Origin: Gammaproteobacteria bacterium
GTDB taxonomy: Bacteria > Pseudomonadota > Gammaproteobacteria > SZUA-140
Direction of reading: 5' to 3'
Assembly (NCBI GenBank): GCA_016218365.1
Contig: JACREF010000005.1
Location: forward strand, 130-64,129
DNA length: 64,000 nt
This document shows positions 1 to 63,811 of this stretch, piece after piece. The position numbers and the translations under genes were made by a program. The number at the start of each line of letters is the position of its first letter. Positions within the stretch are counted from its first letter, which is position 1. A model generated the notes under the pieces. That model was not told where the DNA came from. It was given only the letters and a program-made list of their open reading frames with translations, and did no database searches.

Positions 1-831
1 AGTGACCTTGCGGGGTTCGGTATCCAGCGTCTCGACACCGATCACCACGGCCTTCCCGGTCCGGTCAGCGTATTCGAGCTCATCGAGCGCATGCGAGATC
101 ATGCCATCGGACCCCTGGGCGAAGTTACGGTAGTCCATGATCGCGACGTAATCATAGATATCCTGGGCATGGTCACTGAGCCGCTGCCGCTTGCCGCGCC
201 ACGTTATATTGTCGATACCGTCAAACCAGAACGGCATCGCCGGCCCGACTGCCAGAGCGTCCCCGGACTGACGTTTCAGACGCATGAATTCCGCTGCAAG
301 ATCTAGGTACTGAATAGCGCGCAGCGTGCGCTTTGTGCTCCAGTCATCGAGCAGGTAGGGCTCAATATCGACATTGACTCCGTCAAAGCGCTCAAGCTCG
401 ACGCTGCCGGCGTTATAGCGCAGCACATTCTTGAACATCGCTGTTGCAGTCGCACGCCGCCACGGCAGGATATACTCCTGGGTATTGAGGTATATCGAAC
501 CGAGCAGCGCATAGACCTTGAACCCCCGGCCGTGCAGCGCGGCAATCAGTCGCCGGTACTTGCCGGGTTCGTCGCGGATGATGTTGCGCTTCCGGGAACG
601 GTCTGCATACAGATAAACAGTGGTGATATTCTGATGAGCGAGAAATGAAAATGTCTCGTCCCACTGATCCTCCCGGTCCAGTAACTGGAAGGTATCATCC
701 TCCCAGACCCAGAGCGCGCGGGCAGCGGGCGTGGCGGCCACCGCGGCACACAGATCCGCAATGCCAAACTGGGCAATACATAGCAACACCCCCCACCATC
801 GCATACTGGACCGTACGAGACCAAACAGCAT
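1..831 (-). CDS. Partial (3' end beyond window edge) putative glycoside-hydrolase-like GHL10/DUF4015 family periplasmic protein; probable signal peptide at N-terminus
   Basis: Manual translation of minus strand in frame not reported by ORF track (runs off window): MLFGLVRSSMRWWGVLLCIAQFGIADLCAAVAATPAARALWVWEDD...YALLGSIYLNTQEYILPW...FDGIDNITWRGKRQRLSDHAQDIYDYVAIMDYRNFAQGSDGMISHALDELEYADRTGKAVVIGVETLDTEP; coherent protein-like sequence, start ATG ~829-831 (alt. ~802-804) 14 nt downstream of the preceding gene stop. Confidence 0.55.
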   Translation of the reverse strand, partial: MLFGLVRSSMRWWGVLLCIAQFGIADLCAAVAATPAARALWVWEDDTFQLLDREDQWDETFSFLAHQNITTVYLYADRSRKRNIIRDEPGKYRRLIAALHGRGFKVYALLGSIYLNTQEYILPWRRATATAMFKNVLRYNAGSVELERFDGVNVDIEPYLLDDWSTKRTLRAIQYLDLAAEFMRLKRQSGDALAVGPAMPFWFDGIDNITWRGKRQRLSDHAQDIYDYVAIMDYRNFAQGSDGMISHALDELEYADRTGKAVVIGVETLDTEPRKVT

Positions 832-844
832 GGAGCCGCCGGAA

Positions 845-2881
845 TCAGCGCTGCGAAAAATAGGCCGCATGCTCGTCGTCCGGCATCAGGGTTAAGTCAT
901 GCATAAACTTGCCATTACTCGCCTTGTAGCGGTCGAATTCCAGGCGCAGTTCCAGCCGTTTTCCATCGTCCTTGATCGGCTCCAGGTCCATGTTCTCACC
1001 GATCCTGAACAGTGTATCCTCGTTGAGAAAATACATCCCGGAGATATAATCAATCAGATTATTGATGGTGTGCTTCAGCGGATAGTGGTGGATATTGCGC
1101 AATGCAGGGCTCATATCCAGCCCCGAGCCGACCCAGGTGACCCGGTCCGGCGCCTTGATATGATAGTTTTTCTTCAGGAACGCCAGCAGCGATGGCGTGA
1201 TGTCCAGATGCGAGGAGATGGACTTGATCTGCGCCGTGCGCTTCAGCAACGGTGAATAGATGATCAGCGGCACGTGATAGCGATCAACCTTTGTCGCCAG
1301 CGGGATCTCCGGCAACCGGTGATCGCCGGTGATCACAAAGATGGTGTTGTTATAGGATGGCAGCCTCGCCTGCTCCTCGAAATAACGCCGCAGCGCGGCA
1401 TCGGTATAGAGGATGGTCGAATAAATCTTCTGATACTGGCGATATTTCTGTTTTTGATCCTCGGTGAAACCCAGCTGGCTCATGCGCTCCTCGAATAGCT
1501 GCAGATACTGCTGCTGACCGGTCACCGTATAAGGGGTATGCATGCTGATCGTCTGAATATAGTCCAGGTACGGTGTCCGCGCATCATCGCGTTCCGTCAC
1601 CAGCGCCTTGCGCAACACCTCGGCATCCGCGTAACCCCAGTAGGCGTCCGGCAGCCGCGGATAGCCGGGCCCATAATCGTCGGCGCCGATCATCAGATCG
1701 ATGTTCTGGTGTTGCAGAAAGCTGCGCTGGTTATCGAAGTCCAGACCATTACCGCAATAAAAGCGGGTCCGATAGCCGTTGCGCTTCAGGATACTCAGCA
1801 GCGTCAGATGTTTCGGCATCCGCGCCCCCAGGGCATTGAACCCCTCGTCACCAAACGGCAACGACCCCAGGATCGATGGCAACGACGCAAAGGTCCGTCC
1901 CTGGGAGGCCAGGAAGTTCTCCCAGTACAGACTGCTCCCGGCCAGTTCATCGAGAAAGGGCGTGAAGCTGCCGAGGTAGGCATCGGAACCACTGAAGGCC
2001 CGTCCCAGCCCCTCGACTGCGATGAACACGATGCTGGGTGGCGATGCCGGGTTGATTGTGAAATAACTGCCCAATACATCGGGGGTATCGTCGGCGCGCA
2101 GAAACGGGTACTGCGGGTCGAGGGGATCAACCCGAGCAGCCTGTGATGCCGTGTACGACACGGTTCCAGGCACAGCGGAGACGGCAGCGTGTTCACGCTT
2201 GATGAAATAGCGATAGGCGTCTGCAATAAAGAATGCCCCCTTGTTCAGGGCCAGACTGTTTGCAAACTCGTTCTTAAGCGCAGCCCGGGCGGACGGCGCA
2301 GAGATGCCTGAGACTGCCAGGACGATCCCGGAGATCAGGGCAACATACACCACCAGCGGTGTCAGCAGCACGCGCCTGTTGACATCCATCAGTACCATCC
2401 AAAAAACAGTAAATGGCACAACGAAGCTGAGCACAGACAGCATGGAGATCTGGTAACCGGCGCGCGCGGTAACCAGGATATCCGCCAGTGAATAGCCGAA
2501 CAGGTCGGCCCCCAGCGGCACCCGCGTCACGAAGAAGTAATTGACAAGGATCAGATAGCCGGCAAGGACCAGTGAGCCGACGATGCCATAACAGCGGAGA
2601 TCGGCACGCCTGCCACGGAAGACCTGGCGCAGCAGCAGAAACACCGGCAGCAGAAACACGAGCAGCTGCAGCAAGAACAGCAGGTCCGACCAGAACGCCC
2701 GGATGATCAGCGTCGCAAGATCGGCGGGAATCTCGCTCGTCATCGCAACCCCGGCCAGCTCCACACATCGTACCGCCAGGAAGGCAGGCAACAACGCCAA
2801 CGACAGGTTACCGAACTTCAGCAATCCTTCATGCAGCCATGCCAGGCGTGCCGCCGCCCCTGTCGGTATAAAGCTATCCAT
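845..2881 (-). CDS. LTA-synthase / sulfatase-family (alkaline phosphatase superfamily) membrane protein, MdoB/LtaS-like phosphoglycerol- or phosphoethanolamine-type transferase
   Basis: 678 aa; N-terminal multi-TM region followed by sulfatase-type domain with ...NTIFVITGDHRLPEIPLATKVDRYHVPLIIYSPLL... motif typical of the family. Confidence 0.8.
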   Translation of the reverse strand: MDSFIPTGAAARLAWLHEGLLKFGNLSLALLPAFLAVRCVELAGVAMTSEIPADLATLIIRAFWSDLLFLLQLLVFLLPVFLLLRQVFRGRRADLRCYGIVGSLVLAGYLILVNYFFVTRVPLGADLFGYSLADILVTARAGYQISMLSVLSFVVPFTVFWMVLMDVNRRVLLTPLVVYVALISGIVLAVSGISAPSARAALKNEFANSLALNKGAFFIADAYRYFIKREHAAVSAVPGTVSYTASQAARVDPLDPQYPFLRADDTPDVLGSYFTINPASPPSIVFIAVEGLGRAFSGSDAYLGSFTPFLDELAGSSLYWENFLASQGRTFASLPSILGSLPFGDEGFNALGARMPKHLTLLSILKRNGYRTRFYCGNGLDFDNQRSFLQHQNIDLMIGADDYGPGYPRLPDAYWGYADAEVLRKALVTERDDARTPYLDYIQTISMHTPYTVTGQQQYLQLFEERMSQLGFTEDQKQKYRQYQKIYSTILYTDAALRRYFEEQARLPSYNNTIFVITGDHRLPEIPLATKVDRYHVPLIIYSPLLKRTAQIKSISSHLDITPSLLAFLKKNYHIKAPDRVTWVGSGLDMSPALRNIHHYPLKHTINNLIDYISGMYFLNEDTLFRIGENMDLEPIKDDGKRLELRLEFDRYKASNGKFMHDLTLMPDDEHAAYFSQR

Positions 2882-4924: not shown

Positions 4925-5185
4925 GCCGCGATCCCCTATACGCCCTTCGATACGCGACTGTGTCGCTACTCAGGACAGGCCCTGATGTACCGATCGTGGT
5001 GAGTAGGCGCCCTTCGATACGCGGCTGGGGCCGCTACTCAGGACAGGCTCTAAATGCCGATCGTGGTGAGTAGGCGCCCTTCGATACGCGACTATGTCGC
5101 TACTCAGGACAGGCTCTTCGATATGCAGTCAGGGCTGCTACTCAGGGCAGGCTCAAGCGCCGTATCGAACCATGAACGGTACGGA
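4925..5185. repeat. REP/BIME-like array: ~6 clustered 35-40 nt palindromic units (consensus CCTTCGATACGCGAC-N3-GTCGCTACTCAGGACAGGC plus GCCTACTCACCACGA(A/T)CGG units)
   Basis: Direct reading; same units in both orientations recur at ~22040-22265, ~27890-28255, ~60195-60365. Confidence 0.75.
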
Positions 5186-20614: not shown

Positions 20615-22039
20615 ATGACGACACCCCCGATCTGCGCCGGCAAGTTCTGCCATAACGTCGAGGCCATGGTCGACAAGGCCATCGCCGCCCTCGACATCGA
20701 CACCGGCGTCGCCGCGGCGATCAAGACCTGCCACTCGGTGTTACAGGTGAGGTTTCCGGTCAAAATCCGTGGAAAGATTGAAGTTTTCACCGGCTGGCGC
20801 GCGGTGCACAGCACCCATCGGCTGCCGGCCAAGGGCGGCATCCGTTATGCGCCGATCGCCGACCAGGACGAGGTCGAGGCGCTGGCGGCGCTGATGACCT
20901 TCAAATGCGCCGTGGTCGATGTGCCGTTCGGCGGCAGCAAGGGCGCGCTGCATATCGACCCGAAACACTATAACCGCGAGGAGATGGAGGCGATCACCCG
21001 CCGCTTTGCCGTCGAGCTGGCGCGCAAGGACTTCCTGAACCCGGCGACCAATGTACCGGCCCCGGACGTCGGCACCGGCCAGCGCGAGATGGCATGGATC
21101 GCCGACACCTACAAGCATCTGCACCCCGAGGACATCAATCATCTGGCCTGTGTGACCGGCAAACCGGTGCACCACGGTGGCATCCGTGGCCGCGTCGAGG
21201 CCACCGGCCGTGGCGTGCAATATGCGCTGCGCGAGTTCTTCCGCCACCCCGAGGACGTGGCCCGGGCCGGGCTGAGCGGCACGCTCGACGGCAAGCGCAT
21301 CGTCATCCAGGGTCTGGGCAACGTCGGCTATCATGCCGCGAAATTCCTGTCAGAGGAGGATGGCGCAGTCATCATTGCCGTCATCGAGCGCGACGGCGCC
21401 GTGATCAACGATGATGGTCTGAATATCGAAGAGCTGTACCGGCATATCGTCGAACACAAGACGATCCAGGGCTATCACGGCGGCCGCTTTGTCGCCGACG
21501 GCCTGCCGGTGCTGGAACTGCCCTGTGACCTGCTGATCCCGGCCGCACTCGAAGGCCAGATCACCGCCGCCAATGCCGGGCGCATCCAGGCCCGGATGGT
21601 CGTCGAGGCCGCCAACGGCCCGTGCACCTTCGAGGCCGACACCATCCTGAACCAGCGCGGCATCCTGGTACTGCCCGACATCTATATCAACGCCGGTGGC
21701 GTCGTGGTGTCGTATTTCGAATGGATACGCAACATCTCGCACATCCGCTTTGGCCGCATGCAGCGCCGCCTTGAAGAACAACAGGGTGACCGGCTGACGA
21801 CGGTGCTGGAGCAGGTCACCGGCACCCGTCTCGATGACACGATGCGGGCACAGATCAGCCGCGGCGCCGACGAGATCGACCTGGTGCGCTCCGGCCTCGA
21901 CGACACGATGCGGCTCGCCTACCAGGAGATGCGCCAGGTCTGGCATCACAACCCCAAGGTCCACGACCTGCGCACCGCCGCCTTCGTCATCGCCGTCGAA
22001 AAGATCGCCCGCTCCTACCTCGACGTCGGGCTGTTCTGA
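20615..22039 (+). CDS. gdh: Glu/Leu/Phe/Val-family glutamate dehydrogenase
   Basis: FGGSKGALHIDP catalytic-Lys motif, GLGNVGYHAAKFL Rossmann motif; start probably MTTPPICAG ~20615. Confidence 0.85.
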   Translation: MTTPPICAGKFCHNVEAMVDKAIAALDIDTGVAAAIKTCHSVLQVRFPVKIRGKIEVFTGWRAVHSTHRLPAKGGIRYAPIADQDEVEALAALMTFKCAVVDVPFGGSKGALHIDPKHYNREEMEAITRRFAVELARKDFLNPATNVPAPDVGTGQREMAWIADTYKHLHPEDINHLACVTGKPVHHGGIRGRVEATGRGVQYALREFFRHPEDVARAGLSGTLDGKRIVIQGLGNVGYHAAKFLSEEDGAVIIAVIERDGAVINDDGLNIEELYRHIVEHKTIQGYHGGRFVADGLPVLELPCDLLIPAALEGQITAANAGRIQARMVVEAANGPCTFEADTILNQRGILVLPDIYINAGGVVVSYFEWIRNISHIRFGRMQRRLEEQQGDRLTTVLEQVTGTRLDDTMRAQISRGADEIDLVRSGLDDTMRLAYQEMRQVWHHNPKVHDLRTAAFVIAVEKIARSYLDVGLF

Positions 22040-22265
22040 GCCTGTCCTGAGTAGCGACATAGTCGCGTATCGAAGAGCCTGTCCTGAGTAGCGACATAGT
22101 CGCGTATCGAAGGGCCTACTCACCACGAACGGCTCCATCTACCCGTTCATCCTGAGTAGCGCTGCGTAGCAGCGCGTATGGTTCGATACGGCGCTGCGCG
22201 CCTACTCACCATGATCGGTATATGTTAGGGCCTGAGTAGCGACATAGTCGCGTATCGAAGGACCC
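22040..22265. repeat. REP/BIME-like array (same family as 4925-5185, opposite orientation units CCTGTCCTGAGTAGCGACATAGTCGCGTATCGAAG)
   Basis: Direct reading; starts immediately after gdh stop. Confidence 0.75.
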
Positions 22266-22324
22266 ACCTTGACACCGTCCCGCCCCACCGCTATCATTCC
22301 AATACTCTTTGGAATGATAGCACC

Positions 22325-27889: not shown

Positions 27890-28255
27890 CGTCGGGCTGT
27901 CCTGAGACGCCCCCGTTCGTCCTAACGGGTGTTCCTGTTCCATGGCAGGTGTGGGCCGTTCGTCCTGAGTAGTGCTGCGCAGCAGCACGTATCGAAGGGT
28001 CGCCCTGAGTAGCGGCAGCATGCCTGGTATCGAAGGGCAGTAGCGCCGTCCATGGTTCGATACGGCACTGCGTGCCTACTCACCACGAACGGTCTCCTCC
28101 TCCCCGCCCGTCCTGAGTAGCGACATAGTCGCGTATCGAAGGGCCTACTCACCACGAACGGGTGTTCCTGTTAGTTCCATGGCAGGTGTGGACCGTTCGC
28201 CCTGAGTAGCGGCCAACGGCCGCGTATCGAAGGACCGCATATCCCCCACCAAAAC
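27890..28255. repeat. REP/BIME-like array (largest copy cluster; mixed orientations)
   Basis: Direct reading: GTCCTGAGTAGCG...CGTATCGAAGG and GCCTACTCACCACGAACGG units repeated ~8 times. Confidence 0.75.
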
Positions 28256-32206: not shown

Positions 32207-32362
32207 TAACATAGTCCGTAGGTTGGGCCGAGGTACGAGGCCCAACGTTGCCGGATCACAACGAGCACATGATTTGTTGAGGTGTCGATTTCGATTTGAA
32301 AAAAATGTTGGGCTTCGCATAAACCGCTCAACCCAACCTACCAAATCGCCAATACTGTAACC

Positions 32363-38274: not shown

Positions 38275-38525
38275 TAATTGGGGTCAGAGTAAAAACTCTC
38301 TGGCTACTAATTTTGGTCAGAGTAGCGGGTAGCCTGGGTTGAGCGACAGCGAAACCCGGGTTTCACTCCGTTCAACCCAGGCTACCTCCTATCAAAAACA
38401 CTTAAGTAAGTACCATTCGGGTCAGAGTAAAAACTCTCTATACTATTCCGTTAGCGGAGGCGATGTTAGAAAAGTTTTTACTCCAATTTAACCCCAATTT
38501 ACCATTTACAATTTACCAATTTACG
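38275..38525. mobile_element. MITE-like element, family 1 (copy 1): terminal inverted repeats GGGGTCAGAGTAAAAACTCT.../...AGAGTTTTTACTC, internal long hairpin GGTAGCCTGGGTTGAGCGACAGCGAAACCCGGGTTTCACTCCGTTCAACCCAGGCTACC
   Basis: Direct reading; near-identical copies at ~42555-42745 and ~54140-54400; related short form ~52545-52650. Confidence 0.7.
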
Positions 38526-39699: not shown

Positions 39700-39870
39700 T
39701 AGGGAAGCTCCGATCAATTCAAAAATTACCACAGCCGTCATTCCCGCGAAAGCGGGAATCCAGGTGTTCCAAGTATTTATGGATGCCCGCTGGAGCCTGC
39801 CCTCGACCTCGATCGGGGGCGGGCATGACGACAATTCGAATTAATTCAGAGCTTCCCTGCATTAACACGA
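39700..39870. mobile_element. MITE-like element, family 2 (copy a): TIRs ...CTCTGATTAATTCAAAAATTACCACAG / ...ATTCGAATTAATTCAGAG; internal hairpins GTCATTCCCGCGAAAGCGGGAATCC and GCCCGC-N-GCGGGC
   Basis: Direct reading; copies at ~51775-51900 (truncated), ~63660-63811 (perfect TIRs), fragment ~48478-48548, TIR-only palindromes ~26866-26893 and ~40548-40600. Confidence 0.7.
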
Positions 39871-40427: not shown

Positions 40428-40661
40428 GTGCATCTCCTTGTGATAGCGCTGCGCTGAAGCGTAGCGAATTCCATATACAGGCGCAAGCCGGCCGGCCGCT
40501 CCAGAGATCCTGGTCAGAGATCAAATATTACTAAGAAGGCACTGATTAATTCGTATTGTCGTGGTAATTTTTGAATTAATCAGCGTTTCCCTGATATTTA
40601 GAATCAATTCCACTCTGACCCGGTTTTACTTCATGGATTGCCACACTGAGCGTAATGCTGC

Positions 40662-42554: not shown

Positions 42555-42745
42555 CAGCAGTAAAAACTCTTCTCTATACTGGTGAGATAGAGTTTTTACT
42601 CTGACCAGAATGGCACTTACTTAAGGAGGTAGCCGGCGGGTAGCCTGGGTTGAGCGACAGTGAAACCCGGGTTTCACTCCGTTCAACCCAGGCTACCTCC
42701 TATCAAAAACGCTTAAGTAAGTACCATTCTACTCTGATCACAAAC
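42555..42745. mobile_element. MITE-like element family 1 (copy 2), with full ~120-nt palindrome GAATGGCACTTACTTAAGGAGGTAGCC...GGCTACCTCC...CTTAAGTAAGTACCATTC
   Basis: Direct reading. Confidence 0.7.
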
Positions 42746-43978: not shown

Positions 43979-44239
43979 TTTGATTCCTCCCATCGGTGGT
44001 GGAGCCCGTAAGAGATTATAGTGCGAGCATCGGCTCCGATACGCTCACCGAACATTGCGCTTGAGGCAGGCGTGTTGCAACGCACCACACGTCACTCTCG
44101 AAGCGCTTGATAGGCGCCTGCATAGGCTTACAGATGTGAAAGTGCATTTTGCACAACCTGAGCCACAGATTCTTCACGTAAAACCTTCCGCTTGCAATAC
44201 CTTGACTGAAGCCACTCTTTTGGTTACTTAGAATCAAAA

Positions 44240-44318
44240 GATATCAAAAGGGGCGGATTCTATTGAAATGATAGATACTCACCAGCCCTGGGTATACGAT
44301 TTCAATCGAATCTGACCC
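44240..44318. repeat. 78-bp direct repeat copy A (AAGATATCAAAAGGGGCGGATTCTATTGAAATGATAGATACTCACCAGCCCTGGGTATACGATTTCAATCGAATCTGACCC), left boundary of low-GC island
   Basis: ~95% identical copy at ~49340-49416; internal 14-bp inverted arms GATTCTATTGAAAT / ATTTCAATCGAATC. Confidence 0.8.
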
Positions 44319-44319
44319 T

Positions 44320-44405
44320 TTTGCTCTTTTCGTCCTGACCCTTTTGCTCTTTTCGTCCCGATTATTCGTCTCCCGATTACGCGTCCCGATTACGCCCGCC
44401 GCGAT
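44320..44405. repeat. Short tandem repeats: 2x CCCTTTTGCTCTTTTCGTCC then ~4x CCCGATTACGC(G) units
   Basis: Direct reading immediately inside island boundary. Confidence 0.7.
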
Positions 44406-48341: not shown

Positions 48342-48577
48342 CCGATTTGTTGTTGATCACTTATATGTCCAGCGTATAGAAGAGCGCAGTATGGCGCAAG
48401 ATCCCGGAGGAACATGGCATCTTCGCAGCGGGACATTGAGCGGCGTCACGACATGATAGGCCGCCAGCATGGCATAAACCTGCCAACTGGACTCCCGCTG
48501 CAGCCTGCCCTCGACCTCGATCGGGGGCGGGAATGACTCCTGGAGAGCGAGGCAATAACGGCAACGGGCTAATCCCT

Positions 48578-49340
48578 TTATCGGTCACGGCGCAGCCGGC
48601 CCAGCCCTTCCAGCAGCCGGTCGATACGGCCCCACAGCTGTTCACGCAACCGCGCAGCCAGCCCGCGCTGATGCCAGTCTGGATAGCGGATCTCGATGCA
48701 GTCACGCAGATCACCGTCGATGACCGCACAAACTTGGTCGGCGAACGGCTGATCATCGATCTCCTGATTGGCCTCCAGATTCCAGTGCAAGTTCCAGCGG
48801 TCGAAGTTGCTGGAGCCGATCGACACCCAGTCATCGCAGATCACCGCCTTGGCATGCATGAAGCGCGGCTGATATTCAAACACCCGCACGCCGGCACGCA
48901 GCAGCGGGCTGTAGAAGCGCCGCCCGGCATGGGCGATTGCTGGGTGGTCGCTGACCGGGCCGGGCAGCAGCAACCGGACATCGACACCGCGCTGCGCCGC
49001 CTGCCGCAATGCGCGCAGCGTGCGCCGGGATGGCACGAAATAGGCGGTCATCAGCCAGATGCGGCGCTCCGCGCCTTGCAGCCGGTAGTACAATGAACGG
49101 CGGATGTCCTGCACCCGCAACGCGACCGTTGACGCCATCGGTGACGGTTGCATCTGTGATATTGATACTTGAGTCAATCGGCGTGATCGGGCTGCGGTGC
49201 TGCTCGCGCCACACCTGCATGAACAGCGCCTGCCAGTCGACCAGCACTGCGCCTTCGATGCTGAGCATGTGCTCGCGCCAGCTGCGTTGCGGCCGGCGCG
49301 GGTGGTCAAAGTCATCGCTGAGGCCGGCGCCGCCGACAAG
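48578..49340 (-). pseudogene. 3' fragment of cardiolipin-synthase-like phospholipase D gene (second HKD domain intact, upstream part frameshifted, N-terminus missing)
   Basis: C-terminal FMHAKAVICDDWVSIGSSNFDRWNLHWNLEAN HKD motif in ORF 48578..49369; preceding cls-like segment IEGAVLVDWQALFMQVWREQ lies in a different frame (ORF 48876..49268); no first HKD; abuts repeat B. Confidence 0.6.
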
Positions 49341-49416
49341 ATATCAAAAGGGGCGGATTCTATTGACATGAGAGATACTCACCAGCCCTGGGTACGATTT
49401 CAATCGAATCTGACCC
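49340..49416. repeat. 78-bp direct repeat copy B, right boundary of low-GC island
   Basis: AAGATATCAAAAGGGGCGGATTCTATTGACATGAGAGATACTCACCAGCCCTGGGTACGATTTCAATCGAATCTGACCC. Confidence 0.8.
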
Positions 49417-51774: not shown

Positions 51775-51900
51775 TAATGTATGGGAAACTCTGATTAATT
51801 CAAAATTACCACAGCTGTCATTCCCGCGAAAGCGGGAATCCAGGTATTACAGGACGTTGTGGATGCCCGCTTCATGATGCCTGCTTCCAATTTGTGATTA
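51775..51900. mobile_element. MITE-like family 2, truncated copy b, flanked by ~35-bp direct duplication of the gmd start/leader (GCCCGCTTCATGATGCCTGCTTCCAATTTGT)
   Basis: Direct reading: left TIR and CATTCCCGCGAAAGCGGGAATCC hairpin present, right end replaced by repeat of 51740-51775. Confidence 0.65.
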
Positions 51901-52544: not shown

Positions 52545-52650
52545 GAAAATTGGGGTCAGAGACCAATTTTTGCTAATCCACGACACCCGATCATTATATC
52601 GATAAAAAATTGGTCTCTGACCCCAATTTTGCCAATTTTAAATTAATCTG
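52545..52650. mobile_element. Short MITE-like element with ~25-bp perfect TIRs (AAATTGGGGTCAGAGACCAATTTTT ... AAAAATTGGTCTCTGACCCCAATTTT), related to family 1 ends
   Basis: Direct reading. Confidence 0.6.
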
Positions 52651-54139: not shown

Positions 54140-54400
54140 AGTAAAAAATAAATTGGGGTCAGTAAATTGGGGTCAGAGTAGAATGGCACTTACTTAAGGA
54201 GGTAGCCGGCGGGTAGCCTGGGTTGAGCGACAGCGAAACCCGGGTTTCACTCCGTTCAACCCAGGCTACCTCCTATCAAAAACGCTTAAGTAAGTGCCAT
54301 TCGGGTCAGAGTAAAAACTCTCATCTCAAATATTCCTGACACAAATATGCCGCTAGAGTTTTTACTCTGACCCCAATTTTCCCCAATTTTCCAATTTTTT
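54140..54400. mobile_element. MITE-like family 1 (copy 4, full length with both TIRs and ~120-nt palindrome)
   Basis: Direct reading. Confidence 0.7.
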
Positions 54401-60194: not shown

Positions 60195-60365
60195 CCCTGT
60201 CATTAACCGCCGTCCATGGTTCGATACGGCGCTCGAGCCTGCCCTGAGTAGCGGCACAGCCGCGTATGGTTCGATACGGCGCTGCGCGCCTACTCACCAC
60301 GATCGGCCTCATCCTCCCCGTTCGCCCTGAGTAGCGATGCGTAGCATCGCGTATCGAAGGGCGAC
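60195..60365. repeat. REP/BIME-like array (4th locus)
   Basis: CCTGAGTAGCG...CGTATGGTTCGATACGGCGCTGCGCGCCTACTCACCACGATCGG units. Confidence 0.75.
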
Positions 60366-60371
60366 ACCCGA

Positions 60372-63659: not shown

Positions 63660-63811
63660 AGAACCTCTGATTAATTCAAAAATTACCACAGCCGTCATTC
63701 CCGCGAAAGCGGGAATCCAGGTATTACAGGCCTTTATGGATGCCCGCTGGAGGCCTGCCCTCGACCCGATCGGGGCGGGCATGACGACAATTCGATTAAT
63801 CAGAACCTCTC
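63660..63811. mobile_element. MITE-like family 2 (copy c) with perfect TIRs GAACCTCTGATTAAT / ATTAATCAGAACCTCTC, inserted between pheA stop and DAHP-synthase start
   Basis: Direct reading. Confidence 0.7.

Follow-up and report, generated by a model that had tools for sequence, protein, structure and literature searches.

Intergenic palindromic repeats of a gammaproteobacterial contig as a probable nest of three kinds of mobile element

The 64,000-nucleotide (nt) stretch analysed here (hereafter the window) covers positions 130 to 64,129 of contig JACREF010000005.1, from the gammaproteobacterial assembly GCA_016218365.1, and contains three long copies and several shorter relatives of a palindromic repeat. 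Copy 1 follows cbbQ and cbbO (plus strand) and precedes a RibD_C gene (minus strand). Copy 2 lies between a FadL gene (plus) and a GYD gene (minus). The third locus comprises, in this order, cysC, a hairpin at 52546, manC, copy 3 and a comEA-like gene, with all three genes on the minus strand. An initial annotation, made from the letters alone, had treated these repeats as a single family of miniature inverted-repeat transposable elements (MITEs), in which outer terminal inverted repeats (TIRs) enclose an inner palindrome of about 120 nt. Here we report that each copy is very probably a Russian doll of three nested non-autonomous mobile elements, in which a 57-nt core (L0) sits within a 122-nt shell (L1), which in turn sits within the hairpin formed by the "outer TIR" (L2). 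The three layers are element types that are also found separately and that have different mobilizing enzymes: a DDE transposase for L1, a Y1 transposase for L2 and presumably a REP-associated tyrosine transposase (RAYT; REP, repetitive extragenic palindromic) for L0. Names such as L003, L036 and L097 denote loci fetched from metagenome-assembled genomes (MAGs) or metagenome contigs.

The repeats lie where the initial annotation had placed them, are real and occur far beyond chance. The core, GTAGCCTGGGTTGAGCGACAG(C/T)GAAACCCGGGTTTCACTCCGTTCAACCCAGGCTAC, bounded by GTAG and CTAC, matches three times in the window against 0.00 expected in shuffles, and the three matches are identical except for one C/T difference. 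The palindrome measures 122 nt, has the ends GAATGGCACTTACTTAAG and CTTAAGTAAGTGCCATTC, and is complete in two copies (42608-42729 and 54181-54302), with copy 1 lacking its first 28 nt. Heads of the type GGGTCAGAG number 8 in the window against 0.4 expected. The parts of the three long copies are as follows.

38329 to 38385, plus strand: L0 of copy 1, a shuffle-tested core match.
42640 to 42696, plus strand: L0 of copy 2, the ACAGTG variant, a shuffle-tested core match.
54213 to 54269, plus strand: L0 of copy 3, a predicted fused head-to-head GTAG REP dimer; the core is also present in 51 loci of 10 MAGs.
38325 to 38418, plus strand: L1 of copy 1, with the first 28 nt, including the left TIR, deleted; right TIR CTTAAGTAAGTACCATTC.
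42608 to 42729, plus strand: L1 of copy 2, in the right arm of the L2 hairpin.
54181 to 54302, plus strand: L1 of copy 3, a 122-nt IS4-family MITE with ends GAATGGCACTTACTTAAG and CTTAAGTAAGTGCCATTC and L0 as cargo.
38314 to 38324, plus strand: left target duplication of copy 1, TGGTCAGAGTA; 10 of 11 positions match 38419-38429.
42597 to 42607, plus strand: left target duplication of copy 2, TACTCTGACCA (reverse complement of TGGTCAGAGTA); 10 of 11 positions match 42730-42740.
42730 to 42740, plus strand: right target duplication of copy 2, TACTCTGATCA.
54170 to 54180, plus strand: left target duplication of copy 3, GGGTCAGAGTA, also the head of the L2 left arm; 11 of 11 positions match 54303-54313.
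54303 to 54313, plus strand: right target duplication of copy 3, GGGTCAGAGTA.
38419 to 38499, unstranded: L2 of copy 1, comprising the right duplication with arm GGGTCAGAGTAAAAACTCT, a loop and a degenerate right arm, AAAGTTTTTACTCCAATTTAACCCCAATT.
42559 to 42607, unstranded: L2 of copy 2, comprising AGTAAAAACTCT, an 18-nt loop and AGAGTTTTTACTCTGACCA; the left head is degenerate.
54303 to 54380, unstranded: L2 of copy 3 without the head displaced by L1, comprising arm GGGTCAGAGTAAAAACTCT, a 33-nt loop, arm AGAGTTTTTACTCTGACCCC and the flank CAATTT.

The geometry of the copies separates the layers. Copy 3 reads AAATTG-GGGTCAGAGTA, the 122-nt palindrome, GGGTCAGAGTA-AAAACTCT, the 33-nt loop and AGAGTTTTTACTCTGACCCC-CAATTT; the palindrome splits the left arm of the outer hairpin, and the rest of the hairpin is wholly on the right-hand side of the palindrome. 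After removal of L1 and one duplicate, this hairpin measures 71 nt from GGG to CCC, and its left flank AAATTG (54164-54169) is complementary to the CAATTT on the right. In copy 2, the palindrome splits the right arm (TACTCTGACCA / TACTCTGATCA) and is in the opposite orientation relative to the target, the direct repeat following the single pattern TACTCTGA(C/T)CA at 42597-42607 and 42730-42740. As in copy 3, the left arm is the one split in copy 1 (TGGTCAGAGTA / GGGTCAGAGTA). The three outer hairpins have unrelated loops, whereas the inserted palindromes are about 98% identical, and three independent insertions into the same 11-mer are therefore the best explanation.

This arrangement bears directly on the idea of one MITE family with two tiers of inverted repeats, in which outer TIRs of the type GGGGTCAGAGTAAAAACTCT surround the inner palindrome and the composite is moved by a single, unknown transposase. 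Every motif is indeed present in each of the window's three long copies. However, the palindrome is not enclosed by the outer arms: the outer hairpin, with its loop and both arms, is found to one side of the palindrome, which splits one arm and has an 11-bp direct repeat around it. Copy 2, in which the other arm is split and the relative orientation is reversed, is likewise at odds with a fixed two-tier unit. Moreover, each layer is found alone (28 bare cores, L1 with other cargo and 60 uninterrupted L2 hairpins), and the layers pair with different enzymes. The geometry and the independent occurrence of the layers refute a single two-tier MITE, whose probability we consider practically nil. 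From the initial annotation, the description as MITE-like, mobile and non-autonomous, with a transposase elsewhere, stands, the middle layer being a true MITE; its description as one element with outer and inner inverted repeats does not. The compensatory changes that it listed were overstated for the window, as ACAGCG versus ACAGTG is a single C-to-T change that converts a C·A mismatch into a T-A pair.

L1 has the features of a MITE. We compared the 11-mers on either side of L1 in 17 TIR pairings, which represent 16 complete copies, as the right end in L002 was paired with two left-end candidates. On average, 7.7 of the 11 positions match, compared with 2.7 in an offset control (control maximum 7); the match is 11/11 in two copies and 10/11 in five. 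Because the 11-mers vary between copies yet match within a copy, they are true target duplications, and a site-specific or Y1 mechanism as their source was rejected on the same pattern. L1 is non-coding, measures 109-184 nt in most copies and occupies more than 16 distinct sites with different duplications. Its cargo is the fused L0 dimer, another GTAG REP dimer (L015, L027, L031, L043 and L103) or, in the low-GC contigs L175 and L125, 75-415 nt of non-REP sequence; the REP cargo comes from three REP families. The REP dimer has thus demonstrably travelled as the cargo of a DDE-type MITE, which provides a concrete case, with target duplications behind it, of such passage.

The class of the autonomous partner of L1 is identified. 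The end GAATGGCACTTACTTAAG fits the signature of the IS4 subgroup, for which an end consensus of -AATR--------WTW and direct repeats of 10-13 bp have been reported (PMC2266710, Table 1). Aligned in register, the L1 ends share 14 of 20 positions with each end of E. coli K-12 IS4, and the K-12 copy compared has a 12-bp duplication. In L136, L184 and L185, an open reading frame (ORF) starts about 110 nt after the L1 left end. Its full-length homologues (462-463 amino acids) are IS4-family transposases, matching NF033592 at 207-216 bits (cut-off, 115 bits) and PF01609 (DDE_Tnp_1). The 108-residue fragment beside the L1 end in L136 itself has no Pfam match, and its identity was settled by NCBIfam and the full-length homologues. 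The complete insertion sequence (IS) is present in contigs L186-L191, where it spans 1519 bp, with GAATGGCGCTTACTTAAC and GCTTAAGTAAGTGCCATTC as its ends, and carries a 463-residue gene that matches PF01609; the NF033592 and PF01609 matches given above are those of its relatives P0246 (89% identical) and P0280. Of this IS, the MITE retains some 18 nt on the left and some 28 nt on the right.

Across 65 distinct flanks of MITE and IS ends, the target profile is GGGTCWGASMC, close to the palindrome GGGTCWGACCC. The near-palindromic target explains why L1 inserts in both orientations, and a target of this kind makes the heads of Y1-type hairpin repeats hot spots for insertion by an IS4-family element with a sharply defined 11-bp target. 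The exact site GGGTCAGAGTA is also used in the unrelated metagenome contigs L125 and L099. In the scenario that we propose, a 1519-bp IS with ends GAATGGCRCTTACTTAA, located elsewhere, would supply the IS4-family DDE transposase, and L1 would be its 122-nt deletion derivative. Three insertions of this MITE into L2 heads, in both orientations, would account for the copies in the window, each having duplicated 11 bp at the GGGTCAGAGTA head of L2, which resembles the preferred target GGGTCWGACCC.

Two other relatives were considered for L1 and dropped. Elements of the ERIC/IRU type share CACTTACTTA with L1, and IS231 has a GGG-N5-CCC target and CAT ends. The end signature of L1 fits the IS4 subgroup and not the CAT ends of IS231. 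A literature search by sequence strings gave only chance matches in primer tables. Viral contigs gave five matches to the L1 end, four of them by chance; the fifth, in L055, is a truncated L1 end next to GGGGACAGACCA. Window copies of L1 contain a partial duplication of the REP start (GGAGGTAGCC-GGCG-GGTAGCC, at 54199-54219 and 42626-42646). The L1 copies of MAG JAHKKL01 (L047, for example) are otherwise homologous but lack this duplication, and the 28-nt deletion of copy 1 ends inside it.

L0 leads a life outside L1. A search with the strict core pattern, using one genome per species, recovered 51 loci from 10 gammaproteobacterial MAGs, one of which is labelled Thiohalobacterales; the loci have 56-68% G+C and often lie at contig ends. 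Together with the window, this gives 59 copies in 11 gammaproteobacterial genomes, including 23 in CAVZVG01, 20 in JAHKKL01 and 3 in the 64-kb window. The initial annotation had held that a family confined to its four loci, without target-site features, would speak for a conserved regulatory structure; instead, the family has many further copies in related genomes. The copies divide into 28 that are bare, 19 with one L1 end and 12 with both. Bare copies have sharp ends, with unrelated sequence directly outside GTAG and CTAC, and, three local tandem duplications aside, direct repeats around them do not exceed those of shuffled controls.

The anatomy of L0 is that of a REP dimer. A GTAG-type REP is defined by a GTAG head and an imperfect palindrome of 20-40 nt, and such REPs form head-to-head dimers (PMC3733652, Di Nocera et al. 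2013). The halves of L0 in copy 3 read GTAG-CCTGGGTT-GAGCGACAGCGA-AACCCGGG and its inverted partner, overlapping at CCCGGG. The arrangement GTAG-CCTGGGTT-loop-AACCCGGG is present in 56 of the 59 copies, the GTAG head being degenerate in L027, L042 and L050. Every match to the L0 pattern is a fused dimer. The predicted fold has -37.5 kcal/mol (z = -7.8). The half-unit GTAG-CCTGGGTT-GAGCGnAGCGA-AACCCGGG also occurs as spaced dimers (L003:5906-5997 and L012:925-1010) with unrelated spacers of 31 and 25 nt, respectively.

A relaxed scan for RAYT motifs identified a 177-residue RAYT in L036 (NF047646, 190 bits). Inverted copies of a sister REP, GTAGGGCGCAATAGCGTAGCGTATTGCGCC (variable form GTAGGGCGCAATAGCG(T/C)AGCGTATTGCGCC), lie on either side of its gene and of the homologous genes (L036 and L178-L183); the clade thus has working REP-RAYT units. 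The sister REP shares the L0 design (GTAG, an 8-nt stem and an AGCGnAGCG loop) but has different stems. The RAYT homologues have a conserved dcd-RAYT-DUF3108 neighbourhood in several metagenome contigs (L036:5030-6250, L178 and L179), which is consistent with vertical inheritance of a domesticated transposase. Judging by its anatomy, its copy number and its sister family, L0 would be a fused head-to-head GTAG REP dimer similar to the REPINs, carried as cargo of the MITE and presumably a RAYT substrate. Such a dimer would have spread by two routes, alone and as a passenger of the IS4-type MITE.

Alternatively, L0 could be a mere internal palindrome of the IS4-type MITE, with the bare cores as decayed MITEs that have lost their ends. 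This would fit the 31 of 59 cores that lie beside at least one L1 end, many of them beside one only, as well as the failure to find a cognate RAYT. It is difficult to reconcile with bare cores that stop sharply at GTAG and CTAC within unrelated flanks, or with the seven MAGs that hold bare copies only. The same REP also dimerizes across unrelated 25-31-nt spacers, L1 shells carry other REP families or non-REP cargo, and the design of L0 is that of REPs flanking RAYT genes. We therefore regard this alternative as quite unlikely and retain the reading of L0 as a REP dimer. Arrays of 3-4 units in tandem, a form on record for REP clusters, occur in L017:4280-4960, L025:4200-4700 and L030:1290-2010, with periods of 177, 213 and 297 nt; the unit consists of L0, one L1 end and some flanking DNA.

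The arms of L2 correspond to the terminal repeats of a Y1 transposase unit. The 19-mer GGGTCAGAGTAAAAACTCT is present in more than 120 metagenome stretches among the matches listed, in contigs of 36-67% G+C, and has no match in viral contigs. At the metagenome loci, 10 of 13 Y1_Tnp ORFs (229-248 residues) are flanked on both sides by GGGTCAGAGTAAAAACTCT in inverted orientation. The flanked units measure 793-961 nt, nine of the ten falling within 793-875 nt. Both ORFs submitted to Pfam, from L097 and L117, matched PF01797 (Y1_Tnp). In L097, the repeats at 364-382 (plus) and 1138-1156 (minus) surround a 236-residue ORF (PF01797, E = 3.9e-13), which scores 70 bits against the model for REP-associated tyrosine transposases, under its 80-bit cut-off. 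The flanked proteins are only 41-79% identical to one another, and the DNA end is thus far better conserved than the enzyme, a single 19-nt terminal repeat of a Y1 unit persisting across very different hosts. The autonomous partner class of L2 is thereby identified as well. The initial annotation had proposed a search for a transposase whose TIRs match GGGGTCAGAGTAAAAACTC; one was found, but it is a Y1 transposase that serves only the outer hairpin. We suggest that L2 consists of intergenic hairpins that take their arms from the terminal repeats of a "TIRtron", a Y1 (HUH, IS200-like) transposase unit, and that they were presumably created and maintained in trans by the Y1 transposase.

Non-coding L2 hairpins have 19-nt arms and a loop of about 32 nt of unconstrained sequence, with a modal GGG-to-CCC distance of 70-72 nt (60 inverted pairs, L057-L176), a geometry into which copy 3 (71 nt) falls. 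The 7 nt outside the arms vary by copy but stay complementary (70-92% versus 32-71% for shuffled partners), and complementarity drops abruptly at position 8. In the window, such flanks are found at 54164-54169 / 54375-54380 and at 52546-52552 / 52624-52630. They could reflect either descent of subfamilies or a structural constraint on the hairpin. The TIRtron motif GGGGWSAS is fitted by GGGGTCAG at 38280, at 54167 and 54374 (reverse complement), and at 52552 and 52625 (reverse complement). Further L2-related features in the window are listed below.

54150 to 54163, plus strand: partial duplicate of the L2 left terminus of copy 3, AAATTGGGGTCAGT; similar head duplications occur in L126, L166 and L169.
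38276 to 38299, plus strand: extra solo L2 arm, AATTGGGGTCAGAGTAAAAACTCT, 4 nt past the cbbO stop codon.
52546 to 52630, unstranded: L2-type hairpin of a different subfamily, with arms AAAATTGGGGTCAGAGACCAATTTTT and an inverted copy, and neither L1 nor L0; RNA fold z of about -9.
40511 to 40621, unstranded: weaker relative, in which GGTCAGAG...CTCTGACC heads surround a terminal-repeat pair, CTGATTAATTC...GAATTAATCAG, of another repeat family; z of about -4.

The hairpin at 52546-52630, which had been described as a short relative of the long copies, indeed has the same GGGGTCAGAG head, but neither inner layer is present. Hairpins with GGGGTCAGAG heads that belong to other subfamilies (for example, GGGGTCAGAGCCCTTTGAT...ATCAAAGGGCTCTGACCCC) are found at L171:892-960 and L003:3902-3975, and in L171 an L2 mini-hairpin is nested exactly at the centre of another GGGGTCAGAG-head hairpin; nesting among these repeats appears to be common. 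The outer L2 termini in the window are "stuttered" (54150-54169 / 54375-54400, 38484-38520 and 52621-52645), with AAATTGGGGTCAG doubled on the left and CCCCAATTTT / CCAATTT motifs repeated two to four times on the right. This stutter may be a footprint of the Y1 enzyme making or moving the hairpins.

Several observations weigh against the nested reading. A tblastn search with all three transposases found none of them in the window (best E-value 0.03), and mobilization in trans in this genome is presumed; the initial annotation had likewise seen no cognate transposase there, and the window holds none of the relevant classes, including a Y1 gene flanked by L2 repeats. No RAYT adjoins L0 in about 350 kb of fetched loci, a RAYT cognate to L0 (flanked by GTAGCCTGGGTTGAGCG) was not found, and clustering of all ORFs in the 51 L0 loci gave no recurrent transposase beside L0. 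The only RAYTs recovered belong to the different, sister REP, on which three homologue look-ups agree. The full-length IS copies lie in short metagenome contigs and their left and right flanks mismatch, target duplications being documented only for MITE copies. Furthermore, every L1 shell in high-GC genomes carries some GTAG REP dimer, and this constancy may reflect a closer coupling than simple capture of a passenger. Finally, all three AGTAAAAACTCT-type L2 hairpins in the window hold L1, versus about 2% in the metagenome sample.

Independent insertion accounts for this full occupancy, as the L2 loops are unrelated and the L1 copies are about 98% identical, although co-mobilization of L2 and L1 as one unit is conceivable. 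The nested reading, with separate insertions of L1 into pre-existing L2 hairpins as its probable order of events, remains our preferred interpretation.

The gene context is that expected of such elements. All copies are intergenic, including every L0 copy in the window, with three of the five sites separating convergent genes and the other two separating tandem ones. The locations of the copies are explained by their target duplications and target preference, and their intergenic, mostly downstream positions are those predicted by REP and MITE biology, further explained by the L1 target preference. A different view is that these are structured transcript elements, such as bidirectional terminators or mRNA-stabilizing hairpins, selected at gene ends and only incidentally mobile. 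The folding is indeed extreme on both strands (z of -7 to -12); three of the five sites separate convergent genes; and effects on mRNA stability have been reported for REPs and MITEs in other bacteria (PMC3733652).

Nevertheless, Rfam gave no match in the whole window at the gathering threshold, and a scan for the terminator consensus picked out only 38282-38305 (plus), a small sub-hairpin; the large hairpins are followed by CCCCAATTTT and not by a direct T-run. The position of copy 3 is also unfavourable. The initial annotation had placed this copy (54140-54400) at the transcribed 3′ end of manC, but manC is on the minus strand, so that copy 3 is not at its 3′ end: relative to transcription it precedes manC and follows the comEA-like gene, and the latter already has its own canonical terminator-like hairpin at 54456-54423, ahead of copy 3. 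Similarly, the 52546 hairpin is upstream of cysC, with manC as the upstream gene. The loops and flanks are unconstrained, whereas the transposase-binding ends are conserved across hosts of 36-67% G+C, and the locations are already accounted for by target duplications and preference. Selection for an RNA function is thus very unlikely, and the proposed role in termination or RNA stability, for which no specific support was found, is neither needed nor supported. Incidental effects on transcripts are possible; on the nested reading, any effect of the hairpins in neighbouring transcripts would be a by-product.

The nested reading invites a bolder interpretation, which we consider doubtful although conceivable, namely a three-tier parasitic hierarchy. 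An IS4-family transposase would have evolved to recognize the GGG(T/A)CAG head bound by a domesticated Y1 transposase, with the hairpins as safe landing pads, and a REP dimer inside the MITE would gain RAYT-independent, possibly horizontal spread; the constant REP cargo would then reflect selection. If true, this would run counter to the view that REPINs depend on their own RAYT for all spread and that their inheritance is strictly vertical, and the GTAG REP cargo (three REP families) in every high-GC L1 shell would have been selected and not captured by chance.

The window contains further repeats of other kinds. Another GTAG-type REP family forms clusters at 4940-5120, 22030-22290, 27950-28170 and 60200-60370, with units such as CCTGAGTAGCGACATAGTCGCGTATCGAAGG interleaved with CCTACTCACCACGAACGG motifs in an arrangement resembling bacterial interspersed mosaic elements; its stems covary (GTAG-CGAC..GTCG, GTAG-TGCTGC..GCAGCA and GTAG-CGCTGC..GCAGCG). 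A third repeat family, with the ends CTGATTAATTCAAAAATTACCAC and GAATTAATTCAGA and the internal palindromes GTCATTCCCGCGAAAGCGGGAATCC and TGGATGCCCGC...GCGGGCATGAC, is found at 39700-39830, 51784-51898 and 63661-63790 (partial at 48488-48537). A bare pair of its ends lies within the GGTCAGAG...CTCTGACC heads at 40511-40621, a further instance of nesting. A solitary GTAG REP with yet another stem type is at 32298-32341 (minus strand, GTAGGTTGGGTTGAGCGGTTTATGCGAAGCCCAAC). A 57-nt repeat (96% identical) ending in AATCGAATCTGACCC occurs at 44238-44330 and 49338-49416, the former copy being followed by short tandem motifs, CTGACCCTTTTGCTCTTTTCGTC twice and then repeats of CCCGATTA.

All three kinds of element are already known, and the composite is a tidy example of modest interest. 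Resolving a 250-nt "double-palindrome MITE" into known parts guards against annotating it wrongly as a new transposon or a regulatory RNA. The result is of use for annotating repeats in sulfur-oxidizing Gammaproteobacteria and for the study of REPIN and RAYT evolution, and does not overturn current understanding.

A comparison with known systems places each layer. L0 shares with GTAG REP dimers and REPINs (PMC3733652; Bertels & Rainey 2011, PMC3116915) the GTAG head, the 8-bp stem and the loop, the joining of two inverted units in one long hairpin, tens of extragenic copies per genome and the lack of a target duplication, as well as a heterodimer asymmetry (loops GAGCGnnAGCGA and GAACGnAGTGA). 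In contrast to REPINs, most L0 copies have a negative spacer, with the two units overlapping by 6 nt, and roughly half reside in an IS4-type MITE, whose movement produced 11-bp duplications. For REP dimers within a longer palindrome there is a published precedent (PMC3733652, section 7).

L2 resembles the TIRtron / TIRYT class, whose terminal repeats share GGGGWSAS (PMC3733652, section 16), in this motif, in the inverted repeats at conserved distances around a Y1_Tnp gene, and in its non-coding dimers and clusters, a likeness of motif and arrangement. It differs from TIRtrons in that the 19-mer GGGTCAGAGTAAAAACTCT is conserved across transposases that are 41-79% identical and hosts of 36-67% G+C.

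L1 agrees with the IS4 subgroup and its MITEs or mobile insertion cassettes (De Palmenaer et al. 2008, PMC2266710) in its end consensus and in an 11-bp duplication within the 10-13-bp range, and the IS with L1 ends encodes, as in that subgroup, a single-ORF DDE transposase (NF033592). As in mobile insertion cassettes, variable cargo lies between conserved ends. Strong target specificity, reported for some members of the subgroup (PMC2266710), is also a property of L1. The partner transposase bears only a remote resemblance to E. coli InsG (28% over 82 residues; a marginal BLASTP match, E = 0.01), and L1 differs from E. coli IS4 and its subgroup relatives in its palindromic GGGTCWGACCC-like target and its REP-dimer cargo. 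Insertion sequences that target REPs include ISRm22 (IS4 family), IS1397 and ISPpu9/10 (Tobes & Pareja 2006, PMC1525189), and others that target palindromic repeats are also on record (PMC2266710, section 7). Like these, L1 prefers to insert into another palindromic repeat family. In contrast to the REP-targeting elements, the inserter here is mostly a MITE, its target is a TIRYT-type hairpin head instead of a GTAG REP, and the REP is what the MITE carries.

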